From Thermoprotei archaeon (GTDB lineage Archaea > Thermoproteota > Thermoprotei > QMSL01), in assembly GCA_003650925.1 (NCBI GenBank), contig QMSP01000003.1:19446-83445 (forward strand): a stretch of 64,000 nucleotides of DNA. Reading direction: 5' to 3'. Of the stretch, positions 16,076-61,650 are shown one piece after another (within the stretch, counting starts at the first letter, position 1; every line of letters begins with the position of its first letter). Below the pieces are notes generated by a model. It was given only the letters and a program-made list of their open reading frames with translations. It was not told the DNA's origin and ran no database searches. A program made the translations under genes and the position numbers.

Positions 16076-16843
16076 ATGTCAGGTGTCTGGATAAAGTATT
16101 TAAGAGTAGGGCACGCTAGACGCTTTATCGGTGGTCTTGTGGAGAGGTTCAAGAGATTCGTGAAAAGAGTGAGGGAGGAAGCTCAAATTCCTCTTGTGGT
16201 TAAATGCCTTGGAGAGAGAGTTGCTGATTGGCAATCTGCTGGTGGATTCATACTCATAAAGCCTAGAGCAGCAAGCTTTGACTTCATCCTCTATAGGAGG
16301 GAGCCCATACCTCTTAGCTTAGACTTCAAGGATAGATTCATATGTCAGATAACTATAGTATCTGAGGAAAGCATGAATGAGAAATACGTACCAGTATATC
16401 AGAGGATGAAGACTATGGAGTGTGAACTGGTTTGGAAAGGACTTATAGGTAGAAAGCCCACCTTCAAAGCTTCGAAAAGCCTTGAAGCTCTCTCAAGGCG
16501 AATAGAGGGACTTGCCTTCAACCCCATGTTGGCAAAGGCCATAGCGTCAGATGAAAGTATAATTCATCTTATTAGCAGGATCAAGCCAGGTGAGTTGTCA
16601 ATTCAATTGAAGTCAATGAGTGATGTTGATGCCTACTTCGCTGTAACCCCTGAGATGACCTACGCCATACAGGCGACCTACTTCAAGGAGCCCAAGGATA
16701 TAGTGTGGTATGTCAACCTGACCACTATGCTTACAAGAGGGCCTTCATATGCGAGAAAGGTCAATGAAGTATATGATCTCCTCGAGAATATAGCCCGTAT
16801 TGTCAGGAAGATCGCTGAGAATATAAGGCACAGTGAAGCTTAA
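16076..16843 (+). CDS. Hypothetical protein.
   Basis: A 255-aa ORF with no motif I can assign. It is tightly spaced with flanking genes. Confidence 0.35.
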   Translation: MSGVWIKYLRVGHARRFIGGLVERFKRFVKRVREEAQIPLVVKCLGERVADWQSAGGFILIKPRAASFDFILYRREPIPLSLDFKDRFICQITIVSEESMNEKYVPVYQRMKTMECELVWKGLIGRKPTFKASKSLEALSRRIEGLAFNPMLAKAIASDESIIHLISRIKPGELSIQLKSMSDVDAYFAVTPEMTYAIQATYFKEPKDIVWYVNLTTMLTRGPSYARKVNEVYDLLENIARIVRKIAENIRHSEA

Positions 16844-49510: not shown

Positions 49511-49756
49511 TTATTCTCCACTAGACTTCTCAGCCCATGGAGGTCCTCCTCCACCTCTCCCTCTGCCTCTTCCCCAGCCTCTTCTTCCACGCCCCCTATC
49601 CACTCTATGTATCATATGGTGTGGAGCTCCGCATCTAGGACATTGAAGAGGTTTAGGCATGCCATAGGGCACCTCTATGATATTGCCACATGCCATGCAT
49701 TGAAAGCGTTTCATTGGAGGCTTTACCTCACTAGTCATTGAATACCCCCTCCACAA
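49511..49756 (-). CDS. Zinc-ribbon mini-protein with an RGG/RG-rich tail.
   Basis: CMACGN…CPRCG zinc ribbon followed by RGRGRRGWGRGRGRGGGGPPW. The true start is probably the internal Met (MKRFQC) at about 49714. Confidence 0.45.
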   Translation of the reverse strand: MWRGYSMTSEVKPPMKRFQCMACGNIIEVPYGMPKPLQCPRCGAPHHMIHRVDRGRGRRGWGRGRGRGGGGPPWAEKSSGE

Positions 49757-50630
49757 GCCTGGCTAAAGAGTTTATGACTCTATAGAAAGGTCTCTTCTCA
49801 TCCATGAGCTTGTTTAGATCTCCAGAGCTGTAAGCTGTGTGTACCACCTCATCATAGGGAACCATAGTCAAGGTGTACACGAAAGGTAACCCCTTAGCAA
49901 TTTCCCATACCTCCCTTATAAAGCTCTCCCAACCATCAAACTCTCCAACCTTATTGACTACGATAATACATTGCCTCTTAAACCTCTTATTTAGGTCTAG
50001 TACAAGTTTCAGATCATGAATTCCCATGGGAGTAGGCTCGGTGATTACAAGAACTATATTACTGATATTAAGAACCTCCGATATTATAGAACCTGCTCCC
50101 GGAGGACAGTCCACTAGAAGTATTTTGTTCTTGACATTATCTTTAACATAATCTATTAGAAGATGGGCTACTAAAGGACTTCTCTCATCTCCAGGAACTA
50201 TTTCGCCTCCTATAACAACAAGATCCTTAAGCTTGCCCCTCCATATATATCCCATGATTCGGTAGTCCTCCTTAACGGCATCATGGGGGCATACTATTTT
50301 GCATATGGTACATCCATTACATAATTCAGCTATGAGACTAGGCGGTCTTCCTGGAGGGGCTACAAGAGCATTCTCAGGACAATTCCTTACACATATACTG
50401 CATCCAGTACACTTCCTAGTATCTATTGAAGGAATAAAAGCTTTTAACTCCTTGACAATCTCCACTTGCTCCATGAAGACCTTAGACGAAGGATTATCAA
50501 CATCAGCATCGATATACACAACATCATGTTTCATCTTAGCCAAAAGATAGGCTATGCTAAGAGCTATAGTAGTCTTCCCTGTGCCTCCTTTGCCGCCTAG
50601 GACTCCTATAACCTGTACATTAGAGTGCAC
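49731..50630 (-). CDS. MinD/ParA-superfamily P-loop ATPase with an inserted 2x[4Fe-4S] ferredoxin domain (COG1149-like).
   Basis: Deviant Walker A GGKGGTGKTT. Two CxxCxxCxxxCP motifs (CTGCSICVRNCP, CNGCTICKIVCP). Confidence 0.7.
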   Translation of the reverse strand: MHSNVQVIGVLGGKGGTGKTTIALSIAYLLAKMKHDVVYIDADVDNPSSKVFMEQVEIVKELKAFIPSIDTRKCTGCSICVRNCPENALVAPPGRPPSLIAELCNGCTICKIVCPHDAVKEDYRIMGYIWRGKLKDLVVIGGEIVPGDERSPLVAHLLIDYVKDNVKNKILLVDCPPGAGSIISEVLNISNIVLVITEPTPMGIHDLKLVLDLNKRFKRQCIIVVNKVGEFDGWESFIREVWEIAKGLPFVYTLTMVPYDEVVHTAYSSGDLNKLMDEKRPFYRVINSLARLVEGVFND

Positions 50631-51495
50631 TTTCGATCACCTCCCTGAAGAGCTTGACTAGGGCTCTTGAAGCAGGACTCTCAGGGTATTTGACTATGAC
50701 TGGCTTGCCCATGACATAGGCTCTATAAACATGTTCATCATATGGTATCATGCCCTCCACTTTAATACCTCTCCTATGAAGTAGGTCAAGAATTCTCTTC
50801 ATGATTTCCTCCTTGTACTTATTCAAGATGACCAAATAGGGCACCTTGAAGTGTTCCAAGACCTTAATTACTCTTTCGCATCCCTGAAGTGATGCAAGAG
50901 AAGGCTCTAGCACTACTATGCCTAGGTCGGCTCCGGATATGGCAGCTATAGTAGGGCAGCCTATGCCAGGGGCTGAATCTATCACTATAACACCATCCTT
51001 CTTCGCAAGACCCTCAGCCATTTCCTTAGCCCTATAGACAAGCTTACCAGTATGCCTCATGCCAAGGGCTAAGTTTCCACTTATTAGAGGAAAACCATAA
51101 TCAGTCTCCATTATCCTAAGCTTACCTGGCTCTACATCCTTTAGGACTATAGCCTCTCTAGGACATACAAGACTACAAGCACCGCATCCTTCACATAGAT
51201 AATCTATAACCATGGGTTTACCTTCTATGAGCTCAATAGCTTTAAATTGACATGTAGCAATACACGCTAGGCAATCTATACACTTATCCCTATCTATGAA
51301 GGCTCTTTTAGCCCCCCTTTCAACATATTCCCTAACAACCCTCCCTCCTAAGACAAGATGAAGATTAGGAGCCTCAAGATCAGCATCAAGAGCTATAACA
51401 TTAAAACCATTCTCATGTAAATAAATAGAAAAATTTGAAGATATTAGAGTCTTTCCAACCCCTCCTTTGCCGCTTACCACCACTATTTGCTTCAA
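50620..51495 (-). CDS. MinD/ParA-superfamily P-loop ATPase with an inserted ferredoxin domain (paralog of the downstream gene).
   Basis: GKGGVGKT Walker A. Ferredoxin motifs CIDCLACIATCQ and CEGCGACSLVCP. An 11-bp overlap with the paralog. Confidence 0.7.
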   Translation of the reverse strand: MKQIVVVSGKGGVGKTLISSNFSIYLHENGFNVIALDADLEAPNLHLVLGGRVVREYVERGAKRAFIDRDKCIDCLACIATCQFKAIELIEGKPMVIDYLCEGCGACSLVCPREAIVLKDVEPGKLRIMETDYGFPLISGNLALGMRHTGKLVYRAKEMAEGLAKKDGVIVIDSAPGIGCPTIAAISGADLGIVVLEPSLASLQGCERVIKVLEHFKVPYLVILNKYKEEIMKRILDLLHRRGIKVEGMIPYDEHVYRAYVMGKPVIVKYPESPASRALVKLFREVIESAL

Positions 51496-51496
51496 G

Positions 51497-51844
51497 CTAT
51501 GCCTTCACCCCTAGCTTTCTCAAAGCCTCCCTAACCGTAATCTCTGGCTCTACATAGACTACTTCAATGCCTAGGCTTCTAAGAGCTGCTTCAGCTCTAG
51601 GTCCTAGTCTTGTTACCACGACCTTGCTAACTCCTTTATTAGCCAAGGTCTGTGCTGCAAGAGGGCCTGCACCATGTCCTACGCTAACGGCTGGATTCTC
51701 TATGGCCTCAACTTTAACTATTCTTGAACCTTCTAACTCCACTATGGTGAATGTCTTACATCTTCCAAAGCTTTGTGCTACGAGGTCATCAAGTCCTCCT
51801 TGACTAGCAGATGTTATAGCTATCTTCTCTCTTCCCATGGTCAT
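51497..51844 (-). CDS. NifX/NifB-C-terminal-like (dinitrogenase FeMo-cofactor biosynthesis) domain protein.
   Basis: About 115 aa with …KIAITSASQGGLDDLVAQSFGRCKTFTIVE…GHGAGPLAAQTL… typical of the COG1433 fold. Confidence 0.6.
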   Translation of the reverse strand: MTMGREKIAITSASQGGLDDLVAQSFGRCKTFTIVELEGSRIVKVEAIENPAVSVGHGAGPLAAQTLANKGVSKVVVTRLGPRAEAALRSLGIEVVYVEPEITVREALRKLGVKA

Positions 51845-51865
51845 TCCTCTTGCTGTAGTTATTAG

Positions 51866-52192
51866 TTAAGGTGGCGCCCTACTTTTCCTCCTTTCCTCAA
51901 TAATGCGCCTCAGCTCCTTTATTGCCTCTTCAACACTTCTAAGCTCCTCTTCTAGCTCTCTCTTATACTGCTCAAGCATGGAAAGTTCTTCCTCAGGGCT
52001 TGGTGGTGGAGGTGGTGGCATGTAGTACATTGGTGGTGGATAGTAAGCCGCATAGGCAGGATATGCTTGTTGAGATGGTTGTTGAGTCTGCTGGGCTTGT
52101 GGAGCACTTGAGGGAGCCGATACTGGAGGTGGCGGAGGAGGAGGCATGTAGTACATTAGTCTTCTCCACCACCAGTACCACATACTTTTCAC
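51866..52192 (-). CDS. Pro/Tyr/Trp-rich low-complexity protein with a C-terminal coiled coil.
   Basis: MKSMWYWWWRRLMYYMPPPPPPP…MYYMPPPPPPSPEEELSMLEQYKRELEEELRSVEEAIKELRRIIEERRK. The 12-nt direct repeat CATGTAGTACAT (52019-52030 and 52145-52156) encodes the repeated MYYM. Confidence 0.4.
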   Translation of the reverse strand: MKSMWYWWWRRLMYYMPPPPPPPVSAPSSAPQAQQTQQPSQQAYPAYAAYYPPPMYYMPPPPPPSPEEELSMLEQYKRELEEELRSVEEAIKELRRIIEERRKSRAPP

Positions 52193-52772: not shown

Positions 52773-55700
52773 CTAGGAGTGCAGTGCTTTCTCCGCTCTT
52801 TCTATGTACTTAGCCTGCTCTTTTGATGGGAGAGATCTCCACAGTAATAGCTGCTTCCTTATGCTATCGATGAAGTAGTAGTTTGATGAAACCCATATTG
52901 ACCTAGCGCCAGAGATCCTCCTTAGGTGTAGACTGAAGGCGTAGCGCTTCTCTTCGGGCAGTAGGCTTGCTGAGATCGCCACCTCCTGATTCACCTGCAT
53001 CTCATAGGGAGCCAAGCCTACTATTAGCAGTAGAGCATTCTTATCATACTGTATGCCCTTCAGCTCCCTGACCATGAAGGTCCTGGTCTCTCTGCCCTCT
53101 CCCTCAAAGTACTCCCTTAGGTATTCAATTACTCCTAGGGCCTCTTTTCTCGAGGGAACTCTTAGTGGTAGAGGTATGTCCCACTCATCCCCTCTTGGCT
53201 TAGTTGGTGGCTTCCATCTTCTCTCAAGTGAGGGAGTGACCATCTTAGCGGCTATTGAAGCTGGATAGGCTGCTGAGGTTAAGGTTGCAAGTATGATACA
53301 GGCTATGGCTACTAGTACGAAGAGGGAGGAGTAGTTGAGGACGAAGTATCCAGGAAGTAGGCCTGTGCTTATGAAGACTAGGTTTGTATAGAAGCCTATG
53401 ATGTAGCCGACGAGTGCTCCTAGGATAGCGTAGACCAGGGTTTCTGATACGAACATCGAGGCCACTCCTATGGGCGAAAGCCCTAGGCTGCTATAGGTGA
53501 AGATCTCCCTAACCCTTTCTTTGACTGCACCAAGCATGGTTACAACTATGTTAGCAATGCCTATAGCTAGGATTACGCTCACTAGGTTCCAGCCTAGGAG
53601 AAGGAATACGGTGATCCTGGACAGCTTATGAACAACCCCTTCCCATCCCATGAACACCTCAACGTCGAGGCACATGGCAGCATCCCATGCCATTTTATGA
53701 AGAACCTCCTTTGCAAGGTCTCTGTTGGCCTCTATGACTTCAGGCTTTAGTCTTATGGCTACATTAGCTACATATCCTCCCAGGTCCAGCGCTAATCTCC
53801 ATGGTACTATAAGGACTGAGCTCCAAGAGAGCGTCGTAGGTGCAGGGACCTGTGGGGGAGCGACAAACCTACATAGAGGCTGTACAGTTATGGGATCAAC
53901 AGGTGTTATGGCTCTATTGTCAAGGTCAACTACACTGCCAAGTATAGAGCCATCAAAGATACCCATGACCTTGAGCTTTATACCTGCCCACTCTATGACA
54001 TCTCCTATGGTTACATTTAGCTTCTCAGCTACATATTTCTCGAGTATGCATGCATAGTAGTCATCCTCTCTGAATCCCTCACCTATTAGCACGTCCTTGA
54101 ATATTATCTTGACCTCCTCCGCACGCATTCCAAGAAGAGCTCTTACAGCATAGATATTCTCACCATGTCTAAGTATGGCCTTAGGGCCTTCTGATGGCAG
54201 CTCAGTCTCTGGATAGTACCAAACTCTTGGGCATACTATAGCGTAGTCTCCAGCTAAACCTTCAGCGTACTCTATCAAGTGATGGTCAAATATATCATAG
54301 GGCACACAGTATTGCCTCTTCAAGAAGACTCCTGCGTATACAGCCTCCTCGGGAGGAGCTGCAGCCTTGGGAACAGCAACTCTCTTGACCGTAGTGTAGT
54401 AGGAGGCTGATGTTATCGAAGTGAGGCCTATAGCTATGGCTATGATAGTAGCTAATACAAGGGTTGTTCTAAGCTTCCTCTTCCTCATGTTCTCAACTGC
54501 TACCGAGAAGGCTAACATCATTATGCCTACAGTGCCTGTCTCAGGCTTGTGCAGGCCCTTGAGCTTTAGAGCTACCTCCTTCATTATCCTATTGACCTCA
54601 TCGAACAGTATGGCCAGTGTTATTATGAAGAAGACCTCTAGTAGGATACCCATGAAGCCCATGAAAGCATTGCTTATGATGCTTAGCCCTGGGTGCATGT
54701 TGTAGAATATGAATACAAGCACTATGGAGAGTGCTATGGTGACAAGCAGTCTTCTACGTCCTTCACTATGGAACAATAGACGCTCGAAGAAGAAGACAAA
54801 GGGTATCATGAGAGCGAAGAATGCTATTGTGGTGTTGGCTGTATCATTGATCAGGCTCATGACTTCCTCATAAGCTCTCACTGACCATGTCCATGCTAGA
54901 TAGGCCTCTCTATAGGCCTTGTCATATTCCATATTTCTATAGTATTCCTCAGCTAGTTCAAGGTGCCTCTTGGCCTCCTTGAGCACTTCCTCAGCGCTAA
55001 GGCTTCTGACAAGCTTTGAAGCTAGTGTATTATACCTATGTCTTGCTACGGTATACATGTCGTACGCATATCGATAGGCAGTGAAGGGTATGCTATAGGA
55101 CCTTATCTTATAGCCCAGCTCTATTCCACTTCCCTCGGGATATTCATCACTAGCGTTTACTACGAAGGCCACAGTTCTAGGCAGGCCAGGGCCTGCACTC
55201 ATAACAACGAAGGACCTAGTTCTTGGAAGGAGGAACACCATAGCTACTTCTTCATTTTGACTATACATGGTTCCATACCATATGTATATGCTTCGACTCT
55301 CGAAGTCATATGGAGTTATGATGAAGGACTCCAGTAGGAACTCCTCAGCATTCAGTCTAGGGTCTGGGATGTATATTCGTCTCATCAGCTTAGGGTCTAT
55401 GACGTCGTAGAGCGTTATGGTACATGCAGGCATTACTACAGTAGCAGCTTCAGCTGTCCCTCCTAGAAGCCATAGCTTGAAGTTCACAAACTTTATACCA
55501 TACTGACCATAGTCAGGAGCGTATATTATCTCTCCTGTATTCTCATCAACAACCCATGCATCTACATACCAGCCAATTCCTCTAGGAACTTCGGCAGGCA
55601 GGACAGGTGCCCAACCAGCATCTATGGAAGGTGTTGGACATAGGCCATGCACTATGAAGTCTCCATTCTCATCAGCATAGACGATGATCTGAGAGAATGG

Positions 55701-57437
55701 ATATGTTGATGCAAGCCATACTCTAACAAGAGCTCTTGGGATCTTGGAGAACCAGCCTTTGCTTATGTTGTATGTCCAGACAATACCTTTAAGAGTAACG
55801 AAGCCAGCACTCCACACCTGATAGCTGCCCACTTGGAACCACTGGAATCTCCTTGGCTTTATCAAGCTCCAGTCCAGCCCTAGCTTGGGTTCATATATCA
55901 CACAACACAGCACTGGCAGAGCCTGTATAACTAGCTTCTTTAGATTTTCCATGTTCACATAGGCACGGTCATCAAGAGGAGTATTCCAGTGCACTCTATA
56001 GGCATGTGCTGTCCTAAGGGTTATTGAAGGTAGTCCTGCCACAGCCAGAGGCTCGCTATCTATCATGTAGGGTGATGGGCTTCTTCCCCACCAGCCATAT
56101 TGAGTTATGAAGTCCTTGGTGCCCATTATTATGCTCACGCCGTACAAGGACTTGGCAACTTGCTCAACTGCATAGATCCATCTGCTATAGAGCCTCCTCA
56201 GTGGCTCCCATCTAGTGACCACGTATTGGCCTTCCCAATGTATAGCGTAACGATAGAAACAGCCTGCATGGAGTATGTCAAGTTCGTCAGAGTCCGTTGA
56301 GAAGTCCAGGTTGATCTGAGTCCAGACCTTATAGTTCTCCTTTTGTATCAAGTCATCGAATAGCACATATTCAACGAATTCCCTAGGACCAGCCAAGGCT
56401 TCCCAATGCCCTGAGAAGGCTACAAACATAAGGCTTCTTGGCGGTGGATTCTCAGAGAAGTATCGAGCAAGCTCAAGGAGAACAGCTATACTGGTTGCTT
56501 CATCAACTCCTCTCGAGAACGCTAGAACAGGGCTCCAGCTATCATAGTGAGCACTTATAATTATTATTTCATCAGGTGTCTCAGTGCCCTTGATCAGGCC
56601 TATGACATTGTAGGCTTCAACCTCTCTATAGAAGACTCTGGAAACTACTCTGACCTCAACCTTACCATGCTCCTTAAGCAGCTTGAGAAGCTGAGCTCCT
56701 ACGTCTGAGGTTACATATACTCGAGGAGTATATAGCGGAGTTATCAGGATCTTAGCCAGAGAGTCGAGCCTTGTAGCGTGTGGAGTCTCCATGAATATAA
56801 CTGCTTTGGCTCCAAGCTTGAAGGCATTAAGCCACTTTCTTCCACAATCATACCTAAGCATCACTATAGCTCCTTCAATACGTTTGCCATTGAAATCCTC
56901 TAGGTCTCCATCATCAGCGTAAACCAATGTTCCTCTAAGCCCTTCTGGTGGTGTTGGAGAAGTCTGTATTGAATTAGGCCACATTGAATAGGCCTTTAAC
57001 CTCATTCTCACAGGGCTTATTACTTCTATGTAACACTCCTCTTCGACAGGAGCTACCACCTTATACTTCTGGAAGTACCCATCTAGTCTCTCAAGCAGTC
57101 TCTCGGATTTGAAGCCGAATTCCTTAGGCGTTATTAATCCATATTCCTCAAACTTCTCAGCGATGTATTCGGCAACCTCCCTAAGGCCAGGCTGACCTGG
57201 TATTCTACTGCCAGCCTTCTCTATTACGGAGAGGTGCTCAGCCACTCTATCATAGTCTATACTCTTCACGACCTTCTCATATATTGACCTTATCTCCTCC
57301 TCGGGTACTTGACCATAGTTCCCCCTGATGCTAACCGATGTCACCAAGGATGTCATTGCAATAGATGAAATGAGCATTATAGCCAATAGTAGGATGAGCA
57401 TACGGTCTTTGACTCTAAGACTCTTAACGTCAAGCAT
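52773..57437 (-). CDS. Giant (1554 aa) membrane fusion protein: signal/TM, M28-peptidase-like plus PA ectodomain, polytopic middle region, and a C-terminal MacB/FtsX-type permease module.
   Basis: N-terminal TM (LILLLAIMLISSIAM). M28-like HxD and Asp motifs (IISAHYDSW, GVDEATSIAVLLEL, FSGHWE). A MacB-like N-terminal helix …VENMRKRKLRTTLVLATIIAIAIGLTS…, a large extracytoplasmic segment and a C-terminal FtsX three-TM bundle (…LLLGWNLVSVILAIGIANIVVTMLGAVKERVREIFTYSSLGLSPIGVASMFVSETLVYAILGALVGYIIG…). No ABC ATPase lies nearby. Confidence 0.65.
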   Translation of the reverse strand: MLDVKSLRVKDRMLILLLAIMLISSIAMTSLVTSVSIRGNYGQVPEEEIRSIYEKVVKSIDYDRVAEHLSVIEKAGSRIPGQPGLREVAEYIAEKFEEYGLITPKEFGFKSERLLERLDGYFQKYKVVAPVEEECYIEVISPVRMRLKAYSMWPNSIQTSPTPPEGLRGTLVYADDGDLEDFNGKRIEGAIVMLRYDCGRKWLNAFKLGAKAVIFMETPHATRLDSLAKILITPLYTPRVYVTSDVGAQLLKLLKEHGKVEVRVVSRVFYREVEAYNVIGLIKGTETPDEIIIISAHYDSWSPVLAFSRGVDEATSIAVLLELARYFSENPPPRSLMFVAFSGHWEALAGPREFVEYVLFDDLIQKENYKVWTQINLDFSTDSDELDILHAGCFYRYAIHWEGQYVVTRWEPLRRLYSRWIYAVEQVAKSLYGVSIIMGTKDFITQYGWWGRSPSPYMIDSEPLAVAGLPSITLRTAHAYRVHWNTPLDDRAYVNMENLKKLVIQALPVLCCVIYEPKLGLDWSLIKPRRFQWFQVGSYQVWSAGFVTLKGIVWTYNISKGWFSKIPRALVRVWLASTYPFSQIIVYADENGDFIVHGLCPTPSIDAGWAPVLPAEVPRGIGWYVDAWVVDENTGEIIYAPDYGQYGIKFVNFKLWLLGGTAEAATVVMPACTITLYDVIDPKLMRRIYIPDPRLNAEEFLLESFIITPYDFESRSIYIWYGTMYSQNEEVAMVFLLPRTRSFVVMSAGPGLPRTVAFVVNASDEYPEGSGIELGYKIRSYSIPFTAYRYAYDMYTVARHRYNTLASKLVRSLSAEEVLKEAKRHLELAEEYYRNMEYDKAYREAYLAWTWSVRAYEEVMSLINDTANTTIAFFALMIPFVFFFERLLFHSEGRRRLLVTIALSIVLVFIFYNMHPGLSIISNAFMGFMGILLEVFFIITLAILFDEVNRIMKEVALKLKGLHKPETGTVGIMMLAFSVAVENMRKRKLRTTLVLATIIAIAIGLTSITSASYYTTVKRVAVPKAAAPPEEAVYAGVFLKRQYCVPYDIFDHHLIEYAEGLAGDYAIVCPRVWYYPETELPSEGPKAILRHGENIYAVRALLGMRAEEVKIIFKDVLIGEGFREDDYYACILEKYVAEKLNVTIGDVIEWAGIKLKVMGIFDGSILGSVVDLDNRAITPVDPITVQPLCRFVAPPQVPAPTTLSWSSVLIVPWRLALDLGGYVANVAIRLKPEVIEANRDLAKEVLHKMAWDAAMCLDVEVFMGWEGVVHKLSRITVFLLLGWNLVSVILAIGIANIVVTMLGAVKERVREIFTYSSLGLSPIGVASMFVSETLVYAILGALVGYIIGFYTNLVFISTGLLPGYFVLNYSSLFVLVAIACIILATLTSAAYPASIAAKMVTPSLERRWKPPTKPRGDEWDIPLPLRVPSRKEALGVIEYLREYFEGEGRETRTFMVRELKGIQYDKNALLLIVGLAPYEMQVNQEVAISASLLPEEKRYAFSLHLRRISGARSIWVSSNYYFIDSIRKQLLLWRSLPSKEQAKYIERAEKALHS

Positions 57438-57493: not shown

Positions 57494-59563
57494 CTAGACT
57501 AGCCTAGCCCAGAACATTGGCCAAGCTCTTAGGCAGAACTGTAACACTGCTGTTATGAAGAAGTTGAATCCATAGCCCATTGCGAAGCCTATAGCAGCAG
57601 GTACAGCTCTCTCCTCATATAGCTTGGCGCCGCCTACTCTGAACACTATCACCTTGATTATTAGAGCTATTAGGCAGTTTAGCCACATCCACTCCATGAC
57701 GAACAGTGTCATCATCATGGCTACTGGGTTCCAGAAGAACCATGGGAACCTCATTCTCAGTAGGTATACTATTATGACAAACACTATACCAGTCCACGTT
57801 AGGTGTATGTACTCAGGTATGGTGAACTCAGGTGTTGTGAGTGTGTAGTTCTGAGCCCAGCCTAGAGCCCATTCGTGATAAGGCACTGGGCCTAGCTTGC
57901 TTAGACCTCCAAGGTGATGTATCCACCATAGGCCAAATACATGAGTCCATATTCCAGCTACGATGGCAGTTATTATCATTGCCCAAAATACATCAGCAGC
58001 TCTCACCTTGTTGACCTCAGCAACCTTGTACATGTAGATGGTGGTCCTTATGTTGAAGGGTGATAGCCTTGGGCCTGCGTTTCCTAGAGCGCATACTAGG
58101 AATATCGACTTTATCATGGTTGGATCAGTTGTTGGTATGGCTGGAGCTCCTAGCATTGCATAGACATATGGTGTGCCAAATAGCTGGTATACTGTGTAGT
58201 GCCTCCATAGCTCTGCTGAACCTCTTATGTTGGCTATCTGGAATAGCCAGTATGTTAGCAGGACGAATATAGCAACGTGCACAGGGACTCCAGAGCCTAC
58301 CCACATTGCTAGCCAGAGTAGGCAGAGTATTATAGTACCCCATGCTACAAGCCTATACGATACGCCCTGCTCCTTGATGTCCTCCTTGCCAAAGGCACAC
58401 TTGAAGATGGTTGCGAGGTGCTTGTAGGTGGTTATCAGAACCCATACGCCTATTCCCAGAGTTATACCGCTTGTAGCCCAGTACCAGTACTTGAAGGGAC
58501 CGTTTCTTCCATAGTAGCCAGCCATGATGCCCATGTACATACTCTCTACGCCAGGCCTGTACTCCAGTATGCCTAGCTTGACTCCTACGACTGGGTATAG
58601 GAAGGCGAATATGAACCAGGTCAGCACAGTAGTGGCGAGTATATCAAGTGGACATAGGAAGAATATTGGTATCTCTGGTATCATCAGATAAGCAAATGCG
58701 AAGCCTCCTGGGAATAGAGTAGTTGTGTATGGTGATAGGTCTACAGGCTGTGTGCTCCACTCAGTGCTTGGTGGAATGGCTGGTATGAAGTATCTGAATA
58801 CGTCTGGCAGGGTTCCTAGGAAGCCTAATATGAAGAACACCCAGAACAGCTTATTCCTTGGTATCCTAAGGTCAAACAGCTTCGTCCTGTTCTTCTCAGG
58901 GTCTATTTCACTAGCCCACTGAATTAGATAAGCAGTTGGTAGTACAGCTGGGAATGGAAGCCTCTCAACTTCAATGAAGGGCTTTCTAAGCATGAAGCCC
59001 CAGAAGTAGCCAGTTATGGTCCATAGTAGGAAGAACAGTATCCAGTAGACCAAGGATGGACCCCAAGCTCCCCATGGAACTTCGCCTATGCCTACGTTCT
59101 CCCTAGCCCAGGCCAAGCCGTACCAAGCAGCATCTACGATGTTCTTGTCCTTAGGTATCCAGAACTCGGGAATTATATCCCACCAAGCCTTATAGGGATC
59201 GTTCTCGGCAGCGTATAATGGCATGAAGAAGTGATAAGTGGGAACACAAGATATGCCCCATAGTAGCTGACCATACTGGATGTAAGTGACACCAGCGCAC
59301 ATTAAGCATGTTGTAGTTAGTACGGTTAGCTCAGCTGCGGTAAGCCTCCACTTGGGATTCACCCATCCTAAGAGCTCAGATACTATGATCACTAGGATTA
59401 TTGGCGGTGGTAATACTCCTGGGAAAGCCCACCATTCAGTTAGCGTCTGGATCCAGAAGTTGCCAACGAACGATGCCAATATTACTACTATCATCCAGAA
59501 GAGCACTCTGGGAGTCAATCCTCTCTGTAGCTCCTCCTTAGGAGCCTCGCTCATAAATATCAC
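57494..59563 (-). CDS. Polytopic membrane protein (689 aa), a paralog of the divergent gene and possibly OPT-superfamily-like.
   Basis: At least 14 hydrophobic segments. It shares the FIEVERLPFPAV motif with 59719..61650 (FIEVEKLPFPFA) and an N-terminal LT-x-R. It sits 57 bp upstream of the giant gene on the same strand. Confidence 0.55.
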   Translation of the reverse strand: MIFMSEAPKEELQRGLTPRVLFWMIVVILASFVGNFWIQTLTEWWAFPGVLPPPIILVIIVSELLGWVNPKWRLTAAELTVLTTTCLMCAGVTYIQYGQLLWGISCVPTYHFFMPLYAAENDPYKAWWDIIPEFWIPKDKNIVDAAWYGLAWARENVGIGEVPWGAWGPSLVYWILFFLLWTITGYFWGFMLRKPFIEVERLPFPAVLPTAYLIQWASEIDPEKNRTKLFDLRIPRNKLFWVFFILGFLGTLPDVFRYFIPAIPPSTEWSTQPVDLSPYTTTLFPGGFAFAYLMIPEIPIFFLCPLDILATTVLTWFIFAFLYPVVGVKLGILEYRPGVESMYMGIMAGYYGRNGPFKYWYWATSGITLGIGVWVLITTYKHLATIFKCAFGKEDIKEQGVSYRLVAWGTIILCLLWLAMWVGSGVPVHVAIFVLLTYWLFQIANIRGSAELWRHYTVYQLFGTPYVYAMLGAPAIPTTDPTMIKSIFLVCALGNAGPRLSPFNIRTTIYMYKVAEVNKVRAADVFWAMIITAIVAGIWTHVFGLWWIHHLGGLSKLGPVPYHEWALGWAQNYTLTTPEFTIPEYIHLTWTGIVFVIIVYLLRMRFPWFFWNPVAMMMTLFVMEWMWLNCLIALIIKVIVFRVGGAKLYEERAVPAAIGFAMGYGFNFFITAVLQFCLRAWPMFWARLV

Positions 59564-59718: not shown

Positions 59719-61650
59719 ATGGAATCAAGAGAAGGTGTTGTACTGAAGCCTGGCCTTACATGGAGATCAATCATGGCCATCATGTATGCCTCTTTAGTCT
59801 TCCTGCCAGTGGCCATATATATGCAATTAGTAGCAGGCACTACAGTACTCGTTGCAGCCGCCTACATAACAGCAATACTATTCAGTGAGTTCTCTAGAGT
59901 ATTAGGTGCGCCTCTCACGAAACAGGAGCTCTTCATAGTCTATGAAATGACCTTGATAGCTGCAAGCGCTGCAGTGTTTACAGGCATGTTGTTCAAAGGC
60001 TATCTCGCTACTTCCCCCATGTCTTGGTCATTCGTAGTGCAAGGAAGACCACTTCCAGAAATAGTGCCCTCATGGTGGGCTCCAACACATGGCTCGCCTG
60101 TGTACAAGTTAAGGACGTTAATGCATCCTGACTGGGCGCTGCCCATCCTATTAGCTTGTCTTCAATATGGTGCCTTTTATCTACTTGAGGAGATAGCTCT
60201 ATCAATGTTCCTGGCCTATCTATTCATTGAGGTTGAGAAGCTTCCATTCCCCTTTGCATCCATAGATGCATCCATGGTAACGGCTCTTAGTGAAAGAAGA
60301 CCTGGAATGCTAAGAGTATTCGCTATAAGTGCCATTCCAGGATTGATAATAGGTGGCCTCGTATTCCTACCTAACATAATGGGCACACCGCTAGTTCCAC
60401 TTCCTTGGTTTGATGCGACATTCTTCACGGAGAAGTACATGCCTGGAGCTATGATAGGATTTGGCACAGACCCTTCATTAATAGTTACAGGATTTCTAGT
60501 GCCGTTTACATCAGCCTTCTACATGCTCATAGGCAGCTTGGCAGTATGGGTTTTTGGCAACTACTTTACCCTGACTACATTCGCAAGCGCCTTTCCAGAA
60601 TGGGTTGCAGAATACTCCAAGGGCATGACTATAGCTGCTATCTATCAGAGGTCTCTTCTTCGAGTGTGGATTTGTCCTCAAATAGGCTTTGTCCTAGCTT
60701 TAGCAACCCTAGTTGTGCTCAGAACTATAAAGCCCATAATTAGAGCCTTCAAGGCATTCACAAAGATTTCATTAAGAGCTAAAGTAGGAGCAGGATACTT
60801 GCCTCTTCCAGTAATAGTGGGCATGTACTTGGCTGGAACTCTGGGCTCTGTCTTCACATTTATGTTGCTAGTCAGAGATTGGCCTTGGGGATACATATGG
60901 ATACCACTTGCCCTTTCCCTTGGCTTCAGCTTCTTCCAAGGTTTGGCTTGTGTAAGAGCTATAGGAGAGACTGGCTATTCCATCTACTTCCCCTATGTCT
61001 GGCATATATCGGTGTACGCTACAGGCTACTCGGGCTTCGCAGCTTGGGAGTTCCCACCAGTGATAGGCGGCTCATATGTCCCACCTGTAGGTGGTGCTCC
61101 CTCATGGGTTAATATGATAAAGGCGGCCTATTTGACTGAGACAAGGCCAATGGACTTCTTCAAAGCACTACTCATAACCGTGATAGTGTACCACATATTC
61201 AGCTTCATCTACGTTGACTTCTTCTGGAGGATGGCACCCATACCATCAATAATATACCCATTCGTCCAAATACAGTGGCCAGCCATGGTGATAATGGAAG
61301 GAGCTTGGATCACGAGGCAAATCGGCGTCAAGGCTCACCTGATAATGCAGTCCTATGCCGCTATGTTGGGTATATGCATAGCAGGAGAGCTGGCCTCTAG
61401 GTATTTGGGAGTTCCGTTCTCAGCTGTAGGCTTAGTCACAGGAACAGCGTGGTTGCCTCCCACAATGATACCTGTGTTCATAGGATCCGCCTTAAGCAGA
61501 TTCGTATTTCGTAGAGTTTTCGGCAGAGAGTTATGGGATGAGTACAGAGCGGTCGTGGTGGCAGGCTTCCTCTGTGGGCAGAGCATAATAGTAGGCATAG
61601 GAGTAGCTGCTTCGCTTATAGCTAGAGCGACTTGGGTATGGCCCTATTGA
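59719..61650 (+). CDS. Polytopic membrane protein (643 aa), a paralog of 57494..59563.
   Basis: Shares the FIEVEKLPFPFASIDA motif and the overall TM layout with the divergent gene. Confidence 0.55.
   Translation: MESREGVVLKPGLTWRSIMAIMYASLVFLPVAIYMQLVAGTTVLVAAAYITAILFSEFSRVLGAPLTKQELFIVYEMTLIAASAAVFTGMLFKGYLATSPMSWSFVVQGRPLPEIVPSWWAPTHGSPVYKLRTLMHPDWALPILLACLQYGAFYLLEEIALSMFLAYLFIEVEKLPFPFASIDASMVTALSERRPGMLRVFAISAIPGLIIGGLVFLPNIMGTPLVPLPWFDATFFTEKYMPGAMIGFGTDPSLIVTGFLVPFTSAFYMLIGSLAVWVFGNYFTLTTFASAFPEWVAEYSKGMTIAAIYQRSLLRVWICPQIGFVLALATLVVLRTIKPIIRAFKAFTKISLRAKVGAGYLPLPVIVGMYLAGTLGSVFTFMLLVRDWPWGYIWIPLALSLGFSFFQGLACVRAIGETGYSIYFPYVWHISVYATGYSGFAAWEFPPVIGGSYVPPVGGAPSWVNMIKAAYLTETRPMDFFKALLITVIVYHIFSFIYVDFFWRMAPIPSIIYPFVQIQWPAMVIMEGAWITRQIGVKAHLIMQSYAAMLGICIAGELASRYLGVPFSAVGLVTGTAWLPPTMIPVFIGSALSRFVFRRVFGRELWDEYRAVVVAGFLCGQSIIVGIGVAASLIARATWVWPY

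Follow-up and report, generated by a model that had tools for sequence, protein, structure and literature searches.

The gene at positions 52773..57437 on the minus strand of a 64,000-nucleotide stretch of a Thermoprotei archaeon genome (contig QMSP01000003.1; "the window" below means this whole 64 kb stretch) encodes a membrane protein of 1554 residues in a single open reading frame (ORF) with an ATG start. It is referred to here as the M28-FtsX fusion protein. The best-supported view makes it the large subunit of a conserved envelope system, as yet uncharacterised, whose basis is a type VII (MacB/FtsX-like) ATP-binding cassette (ABC) module. More specifically, and with a likelihood that falls somewhat short of even, it would be a type VII mechanotransducer with an exchangeable ectodomain for capturing an oligomeric nutrient on behalf of an OPT-type importer, with the ATPase supplied in trans in this organism. 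The strongest clue, which an earlier note on this DNA had missed, is that permease genes of the OPT and DUF6785 families are conserved partners of the M28-FtsX gene.

The M28-FtsX fusion protein

The earlier note had read the ORF as a three-part fusion of an M28 aminopeptidase-like domain, a middle section with several transmembrane (TM) helices and a complete MacB/FtsX unit. This fusion is real and conserved. Pfam places Peptidase_M28 at residues 277-404 (54.1 bits; gathering score, GA, 21.3) and FtsX (PF02687) at residues 1287-1399 (40.7 bits; GA 25.5) of the same polypeptide, with sub-threshold matches to PA at residues 169-247 (18.4 bits; GA 23.9) and to MacB_PCD at residues 1100-1181 (20.2 bits; GA 27). 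The motifs quoted in the note were all found in the ORF: IISAHYDSW at 293-301, GVDEATS at 310-316, FSGHWE at 341-346 and VENMRKRKLRT at 980-990. Gene calls on seven contigs, from several independent samples, give the identical protein, and more than 120 homologue clusters of ~1450-1580 residues span 95-100% of its length with the same domains. Relatives of the same architecture are encoded at 460 loci of species-representative genomes. A two-gene artefact caused by a frameshift or an assembly error has nothing in its favour save the unusual length of the protein; it is excluded by the seven identical contigs and because these full-length clusters and loci share one architecture, and its probability is negligible.

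The family comprises ~1,200 clusters at 50% identity. Its carriers are mostly heterotrophic Thermofilaceae, Bathyarchaeia, Brockarchaeota and Armatimonadota, and many genomes have two to four or more paralogues, as judged from assembly prefixes that recur in the best 80 of the 460 loci, which were the ones examined. Database names for its members are automatic ("FtsX-like permease family protein", "M28 family peptidase", "hypothetical protein"). Full-text literature searches for DUF6785, M28-FtsX or an FtsX-OPT association found no paper, and the remark of the earlier note that the combination maps to no described family agrees with this. For the neighbour analysis, ORFs were called in 85 loci and then clustered, and loci were assigned to Bacteria or Archaea from record titles. 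The calls are simple longest ORFs, by which some high-GC bacterial genes were mis-called; the downstream operons were corrected.

Hydropathy gives eight TM segments, at residues 14-32, 871-889, 897-915, 927-945, 993-1011, 1285-1303, ~1330-1356 and 1372-1390. The middle section does contain TM helices, and its precise extent is three of them. The charges flanking the segments are compatible with an N-in orientation, which would place residues 33-870 and 1012-1284 outside and residues 1391-1554 inside the cell. AlphaFold2 (AF2) models were made as two separate halves and both are confident, with a predicted local distance difference test score (pLDDT) of 92.0 and a predicted template-modelling score of 0.92 for residues 33-870, and a pLDDT of 89.8 for residues 860-1554. 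The cytoplasmic C-terminal domain is modelled as a helix-grip domain, an assignment at fold level only. It matched 1230 proteins among 1.84 billion cluster representatives (E up to 1e-3), and in the best 150 of these matches it lies at the C-terminus of proteins of ~1450-1550 residues, of fragments, or of variants of ~1050-1170 residues. Two conserved features have no counterpart in MacB-type proteins: an invariant His-Pro pair (H915-P916, ~54690-54695) at the outer end of the extra TM3, and the LGxHxxE motif of the cytoplasmic linker (G961/H963, ~54549-54557).

The N-terminal half adopts the M28 alpha/beta fold. A search of PDB sequences with a profile of 36 family members finds the PA-containing aminopeptidase 2ek8 (3e-33), BSAP, transferrin receptor 1 (TfR1), nicalin and GCPII. 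Foldseek with the AF2 model returns PA-M28 enzymes, GCPII and TfR1 at 1e-26 to 1e-20 (best 1.6e-26), the alignments to GCPII and TfR1 covering ~550-600 columns at ~1e-20. As in the TfR/GCPII architecture, an inserted PA (apical) domain lies behind an N-terminal anchor, and the 2ek8 profile alignment covers both PA and M28 even though the Pfam PA score is sub-threshold. TFR_dimer has no Pfam match in the protein; a three-helix bundle is present, after an intervening beta domain.

The catalytic apparatus is another matter. Its columns were read from the 2ek8 alignment and counted over 78 non-identical members (53 archaeal, 25 bacterial). His97 of the HxD motif corresponds to H297 in the window protein and is His in 31/53 archaeal sequences and Tyr in 24/25 bacterial ones. 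Asp99 (D299) is invariant, the bridging Asp117 (D312) is Asp or Glu, and Asp179 (D378) is retained in 69/78. The general-base Glu151, first residue of the EE motif, is replaced by H344; the column holds His in 70/78 members and Glu in none. The zinc ligand Glu152 corresponds to W345, mostly Trp, Phe or Tyr, and His256 to N485, which is Gly, Asn, Trp or Phe in archaea and Asp in bacteria. The M28 part thus lacks the catalytic Glu and two or three ligands of the His-Asp-Glu-Asp-His zinc set, and its Pfam match reaches only profile positions 1-105 of 193. As these replacements recur across the 78 members, one zinc site is destroyed and the catalytic base gone family-wide. The earlier note had suspected an incomplete ligand set and a TfR-like binding module, and the columns bear it out: catalytic Glu and ligands are replaced, as in TfR and nicalin. 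Having the fold and failing on the catalytic residues, the domain belongs with the non-peptidase homologues of M28. It is probably an inactive pseudo-peptidase of the TfR/GCPII type, and with the catalytic Glu and part of the di-zinc site lost, binding by the ectodomain is more likely than cleavage.

The FtsX module, the ATPases of related operons and the OPT-superfamily permeases

The C-terminal half matches MacB (5lil) at 6e-18 in the PDB profile search, and also YtrF and LolF/C/E. The FtsX unit is complete, as the earlier note held: an elbow helix, TM1, a large extracytoplasmic domain with a Porter/Sabre (MacB_PCD) core and TM2-4 of the three-helix FtsX domain form a MacB-like fold, with structural matches to MacB, LolC/E, HrtB, FtsX and YtrF. 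Membership of the ADOP family (TIGR03434) was considered and rejected, the protein scoring 27.5 bits against a cut-off of 622.3 and having a single FtsX unit.

The coupling helices and the elbow helix are where MacB-type transporters touch their nucleotide-binding domain (PMC8277102). Conservation was computed, in bits per column, over 52 archaeal sequences that have no operonic ATPase. The highest value belongs to the motif TPSLERKWKxPTKPxGDxW after TM8 (3.03 bits), followed by the TM6-TM7 coupling loop ERxREI...GLSP (2.79) and the elbow helix ENMRKRKLRT before TM5 (2.68). The PA-M28 domain stands at 2.19; least conserved are two regions, the beta domain at 1.79 and the extracytoplasmic domain of the FtsX unit at 1.67. 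Because the segments expected to contact a nucleotide-binding domain are the best conserved in ATPase-unlinked members, these archaeal proteins would seem still to retain a cytoplasmic partner. The same pattern gives indirect evidence of ATP-driven mechanotransmission.

No Walker A plus LSGGQ pair occurs in any frame of the window, and tblastn with an ABC ATPase found no match in it, so the claim of the earlier note that no ABC ATPase lies nearby holds over the whole 64 kb. Its description of the module as an orphan is right for this locus and wrong for the family, since operons of Armatimonadota and Tardisphaera-like archaea carry one or more LolD/MacB-type ATPases together with a small FtsX protein. 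The gene order in Armatimonadota is M28-FtsX, DUF6785-like permease, a protein of the c3 family (300-350 residues), a PqqD-family protein, a 4-TM FtsX protein (~210-240 residues) and an ABC ATPase. A same-strand ATPase gene is found in 12/16 bacterial loci with at least 6.5 kb of downstream sequence. The same gene set with two ATPases is present in three archaeal contigs: L025, from the cultured Tardisphaera saccharovorans, L091 and L092. The PqqD-family gene occurs in 9 of ~15 bacterial operons as well as in the full archaeal operons. The operon ATPases have MJ0796, MacB and LolD as best PDB matches (1e-71 to 1e-55) and LolD, MacB, DarD, YbbA, FtsE and DevA as best NCBIfam matches. Because orthologous operons encode these subunits, there is precedent within the family for an ATPase, and its being borrowed in trans at the window locus, as the earlier note proposed, is plausible. 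In this lineage, other parts of the genome most likely encode the ATPase and the small FtsX subunit. A c3 gene standing alone at locus L086 indicates that archaeal genomes can have the parts of the system scattered.

A second class of FtsX protein also adjoins DUF6785 genes. These paralogues of ~1020-1130 residues share only residues ~830-1466 of the window protein, that is, three TM helices and the FtsX unit, and have a different, non-M28 N-terminal ectodomain. At L085 the gene for the 1069-residue FtsX protein without M28 comes after that for a beta-sandwich-rich protein and before DUF6785, c3 and small FtsX genes. A conserved core, in the membrane and the cytoplasm, with swappable, fast-evolving ectodomains fits the pattern expected of specificity modules on a common engine.

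In the window the M28-FtsX gene is preceded by a co-oriented DUF6785 gene across a 56-bp gap, with GGAGG 8 nt ahead of its ATG, and T-rich tracts follow its stop codon. A divergent gene on the other side of the DUF6785 gene encodes a permease whose Pfam OPT (PF03169) match spans profile positions 127-615 of 623. A profile-profile comparison with hhalign shows the two permease types to be homologous over their full length (probability 100%, E 2.9e-40, 605 columns), their direct BLASTP comparison being insignificant, and both therefore belong to the OPT family by their Pfam match or by homology over the polytopic core. Measured outward from M28-FtsX loci, polytopic neighbours of this kind (~640 and ~685 residues) occur in 67/85 loci. 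Among the 37 archaeal loci having both flanks, an OPT/DUF6785 gene is directly adjacent in 33 and two or more are present in 27. A homologue search with the DUF6785 protein gave at least 8 matches. In an Armatimonadaceae metagenome-assembled genome (L082), M28-FtsX and a DUF6785-like permease are joined in frame in an ORF of 2488 residues, which is either a natural fusion or the result of a lost stop codon.

All functionally characterised OPT members are cation-coupled importers; the prokaryotic ones are biochemically uncharacterised, and their context hints at peptides, or at oligosaccharides for one subcluster (PMC3061005). Because the characterised members are all importers, uptake is favoured over the surface remodelling or export that the earlier note had suggested.

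Several further genes accompany the module (Table 1). The c3/c24 family, with no relative in Pfam, NCBIfam or PDB, is cytoplasmic and a conserved member of the operon in loci of Armatimonadota, Tardisphaera-like archaea and Caldarchaeales; C118, C278 and C308-H309 are invariant in its alignment and H147 nearly so, pointing to a metal site. In the three archaeal contigs the full operon is followed by a gene for an SBP_bac_5 binding protein (OppA/DppA type) whose tail is CarboxypepD_reg-like. It appears to be an orphan, no OppBC-type permease genes being visible nearby, and at L091 GH31 and GH57 glycosidase genes lie beside it; these neighbours speak for the uptake reading. In the Armatimonadota operon L084 the ATPase gene is followed by genes for an FkbM-type methyltransferase and a canonical M28 peptidase of full length, its match covering profile positions 1-189 of 193. 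In about six archaeal loci a gene for a B12-binding radical SAM protein, with TIGR04190 as closest model, lies divergently beside the module, and at L005 a small PqqD-like ORF accompanies it. The c7 family (230-255 residues, no Pfam match) stands beside the M28-FtsX/DUF6785 module in eight loci; the copy in the window lies 36 kb from the M28-FtsX gene, amid unrelated genes such as TatD and HerA/NurA. Downstream of the M28-FtsX gene is a separate cluster that encodes DUF5320, a NifX/NifB-like (Nitro_FeMo-Co) protein and two MinD/CbiA-type P-loop ATPases with inserted 4Fe-4S ferredoxin domains. Judging from L087, this cluster is followed by MJ0401-like, DUF134 and FeoA genes.

Table 1. Positions of the features discussed, in the window unless a locus (L) is given
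Feature	Position	Strand	Basis or remark
N-terminal hydrophobic segment (residues 14-32), signal anchor or signal peptide	57342..57398	-	Hydropathy; four K/R residues before the segment, fits N-in
PA-M28 ectodomain (residues ~60-515), TfR/GCPII/2ek8-like fold	55893..57260	-	Pfam, PDB profile, AF2, Foldseek, column counts
Beta-rich extracellular domain (residues ~530-785), no family assigned	55083..55850	-	AF2 secondary structure
Three-helix stalk (residues ~786-868) leading into TM2	54834..55082	-	AF2 model
Three extra TM helices (residues 871-945)	54603..54827	-	Hydropathy, AF2, conservation
Cytoplasmic linker with LGxHxxE, then amphipathic elbow helix ENMRKRKLRT (residues 946-992)	54462..54602	-	Aligned to the MacB pre-TM1 helix
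Complete MacB/FtsX unit: TM5 (993-1011), Porter/Sabre-type extracytoplasmic domain (1012-1284), TM6-8 with coupling loop (1285-1390)	53268..54461	-	
Post-TM8 motif, then predicted cytoplasmic helix-grip (SRPBCC/KA1-like) domain (residues 1391-1554)	52776..53267	-	
DUF6785+DUF6784 polytopic permease (OPT superfamily), upstream co-oriented partner	57494..59563	-	Pfam above GA, synteny, hhalign
Divergent OPT-family permease, 643 residues, second conserved partner paralogue	59719..61650	+	Pfam OPT 45.2 bits (GA 25.8), synteny, hhalign
DUF5320, Nitro_FeMo-Co and MinD/CbiA-type cluster	49731-52192	-	
c7 family, window copy	16076-16843	+	
c7 family, other copies	L072:16171-16863	-	Also L015, L017, L039, L005, L013, L029
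M28-less 3TM+FtsX paralogues	L024:8162-11557; L033:9194-12259; L035:638-3748; L005:17691-20747; L085:3777-6986		
M28-FtsX and DUF6785-like permease in one ORF	L082:9347-16813	+	
c3/c24 family	L084:16615-17556	+	
c3/c24 family	L025:16216-17319; L003:15772-16662		
SBP_bac_5 binding protein	L025:21597-23603; L091:15427-17430; L092:15150-17216		
FkbM-type methyltransferase and M28 peptidase	L084:19380-21688	+	
B12-binding radical SAM protein	L007:3710-5206; L005:12828-14444	-	Also L013, L024, L058
Small PqqD-like ORF	L005:14327-14632	-	

Proposed mechanism and alternatives

The proposed mechanism infers complex formation, ATP dependence in this organism, substrate class and transport direction. 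In the full system of Armatimonadota and Tardisphaera-like archaea, the minimal 4-TM FtsX protein and the LolD/MacB-type ATPase or ATPases would complete an ABC engine, and the M28-FtsX protein would act with one or two OPT-superfamily permeases encoded next to it. Binding and hydrolysis of ATP in the cytoplasm would be passed on through the FtsX stalk helices and move the ectodomains. These may capture an oligomeric nutrient, a peptide or possibly an oligosaccharide, and hand it over or release it to the OPT-type symporter for import. In the lineage of the window just the permease genes and the M28-FtsX gene are clustered. A bolder form of the proposal, which is doubtful, is a hybrid uptake machine not described before, in which the primary-active type VII transducer with its exchangeable surface receptor ectodomains is physically coupled to the OPT secondary transporters and uses ATP to capture, unload or gate the substrate; the ectodomain would be a TfR-like pseudo-peptidase here and another fold in the paralogues. 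If true, Thermoproteota and Armatimonadota would have in it a functional counterpart to nutrient capture of the binding-protein-dependent or SusCD/TonB type.

A number of observations weigh against the proposed uptake system. A hidden Markov model search of the window ORFs for c3, small FtsX, PqqD, c23 and c24 was negative save for the FtsX domain of the M28-FtsX protein itself. An operon-type same-strand ATPase gene lies downstream in only 3/37 archaeal loci, leaving 34/37 without one, and there is none in the 64 kb of the window. What supports a physical interaction of M28-FtsX with the permeases is synteny and one fusion. A Pfam census of 111 archaeal flanking genes was heterogeneous and defined no pathway, with small counts for radical SAM/B12, GFO_IDH_MocA, URO-D, aldo-keto reductase, TIM-barrel, TrmB and sulfatase proteins. 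To our knowledge, characterised MacB-type systems expel or extract substrates and none assists import. PqqD-like proteins and the B12-radical SAM genes present in some loci are typical of peptide maturation and export. Because the ATPase, small FtsX, c3 and PqqD genes are all missing from the window and an operonic ATPase is so rare among the archaeal loci, an ATPase-independent role of the window protein is possible. In one such role, assumed for most archaea including this one, the FtsX module would be a passive anchor or dimerisation platform of a receptor or scaffold that keeps the PA-M28-like binding domain beside the OPT permeases, and no ABC engine would take part. Orphan FtsX permeases have a precedent in ADOP, the best NCBIfam match of the protein, although far under its cut-off. 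This scaffold is rather unlikely, because the coupling loop, the elbow helix and the post-TM8 motif are most conserved in precisely those proteins that are unlinked to an ATPase, archaeal relatives with a full operon exist, and the components are dispersible in archaeal genomes, as the solitary c3 gene shows.

The remaining alternatives give the ectodomain or its neighbours a catalytic task. An active surface exopeptidase would trim extracellular peptides with its M28 domain, the OPT permeases would import the products, and the FtsX part would do no more than anchor or regulate, as FtsEX does with hydrolases. The M28 fold with the PA domain of secreted aminopeptidases (2ek8, BSAP, PaAP) and the OPT neighbours would suit this, as would the repeated pairing of type VII systems with hydrolases, e.g., FtsEX-EnvC and YbbAP, which are among the structural matches. 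The conserved D/E312, H344 and D378, with D299, may also form a mononuclear metal site, so that residual hydrolase activity is possible, which is a further point against a purely binding ectodomain. Against an active exopeptidase stand a general-base Glu in 0/78 sequences, an aromatic residue at the Glu152 position of most members, the loss of His at the His256 position, Tyr at the His97 position of nearly all bacterial members, and a Pfam M28 match confined to the first part of the profile; moreover, a canonical M28 peptidase is encoded separately at the end of the L084 operon. This alternative is quite improbable, and the same low weight is given to a machine for export or maturation, in which the PqqD-like chaperone and accessory enzymes would prepare a peptide, the OPT-like protein or a MacB-like pump would export it, and the ectodomain would process or position it. 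The PqqD genes of the bacterial and full archaeal operons fit such a role, as do the radical SAM gene of about six archaeal loci (with the PqqD-like ORF that L005 adds), the FkbM methyltransferase of L084 and an operon ATPase that resembles MacB-type exporters, DarD included. However, no gene for a precursor peptide was recognised, and neither the bacterial operons nor most archaeal loci, the window among them, have the radical SAM gene. All OPT members characterised so far import (PMC3061005), and several diverging paralogues per genome suit nutrient receptors better than a single biosynthetic exporter.

The nutrient-uptake reading keeps its tentative preference. Type VII ABC systems are known for extraction, efflux and the control of hydrolases, and a branch tied to a receptor-like pseudo-peptidase and to OPT permeases would, if true, widen the uses of mechanotransmission. 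It would also provide a first functional entry point to prokaryotic OPT and DUF6785/DUF6784 proteins. The family is large, has several paralogues per genome and is concentrated in heterotrophs, so that it may be a major, so far unrecognised, route by which archaea of hot springs and sediments take up organic matter. Tardisphaera saccharovorans, which is cultured and has the full operon, makes the system experimentally tractable.

Relation to known systems

The novelty lies in the receptor-like ectodomain fused to a type VII ABC system and in the new class of partner, within a large and unstudied family that spans domains of life. ADOP ("duplicated orphan permease") proteins are similar in being FtsX-type permeases without a linked ATPase gene, but they have two FtsX units and no M28 domain, whereas the window protein has a single FtsX unit. 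The OPT family (TC 2.A.67) includes the 643-residue neighbour, which is above the Pfam gathering score, and the DUF6785/6784 neighbour as its full-length homologue; no prokaryotic OPT protein is known to work with an ABC-type or receptor-like partner.

With the type VII systems MacB, LolCDE, FtsEX, HrtBA, YtrEF and YbbAP the protein shares the elbow helix, TM1, the Porter/Sabre-like domain, the three-helix FtsX bundle and the ERxREI coupling loop. The orthologous operons add a LolD/MacB-type nucleotide-binding domain and a second FtsX subunit, comparable to the pair LolC/LolE, and several type VII systems likewise drive or feed an extracytoplasmic hydrolase or hydrolase-like partner. In contrast to them, the window protein has no nucleotide-binding domain fused to it or adjacent in its genome region, and it carries ~990 extra N-terminal residues (PA-M28-like ectodomain, beta domain, stalk and three TM helices) and an extra C-terminal domain predicted to be of the helix-grip fold. 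Its obligate-looking association with OPT permeases was not found described for any type VII system.

The secreted PA-M28 aminopeptidases (Aneurinibacillus AM-1 2ek8, B. subtilis BSAP/YwaD and P. aeruginosa PaAP) are the best sequence and fold matches to residues ~40-515. In contrast to the window protein, these are soluble di-zinc enzymes that are active and possess the complete H-D-E(E)-D-H set. TfR1, GCPII and nicalin differ from it in other ways: the window protein is prokaryotic, has no detected TFR_dimer domain, continues into a polytopic MacB-type module and shows its own replacement pattern, GHW in place of the xEE of active enzymes. All three nevertheless resemble it in having a membrane anchor at the N-terminus and, behind it, an M28 fold into which a PA (apical) domain is inserted, and TfR1 and nicalin have likewise lost catalytic and zinc-binding residues, which implies a binding or scaffolding role.

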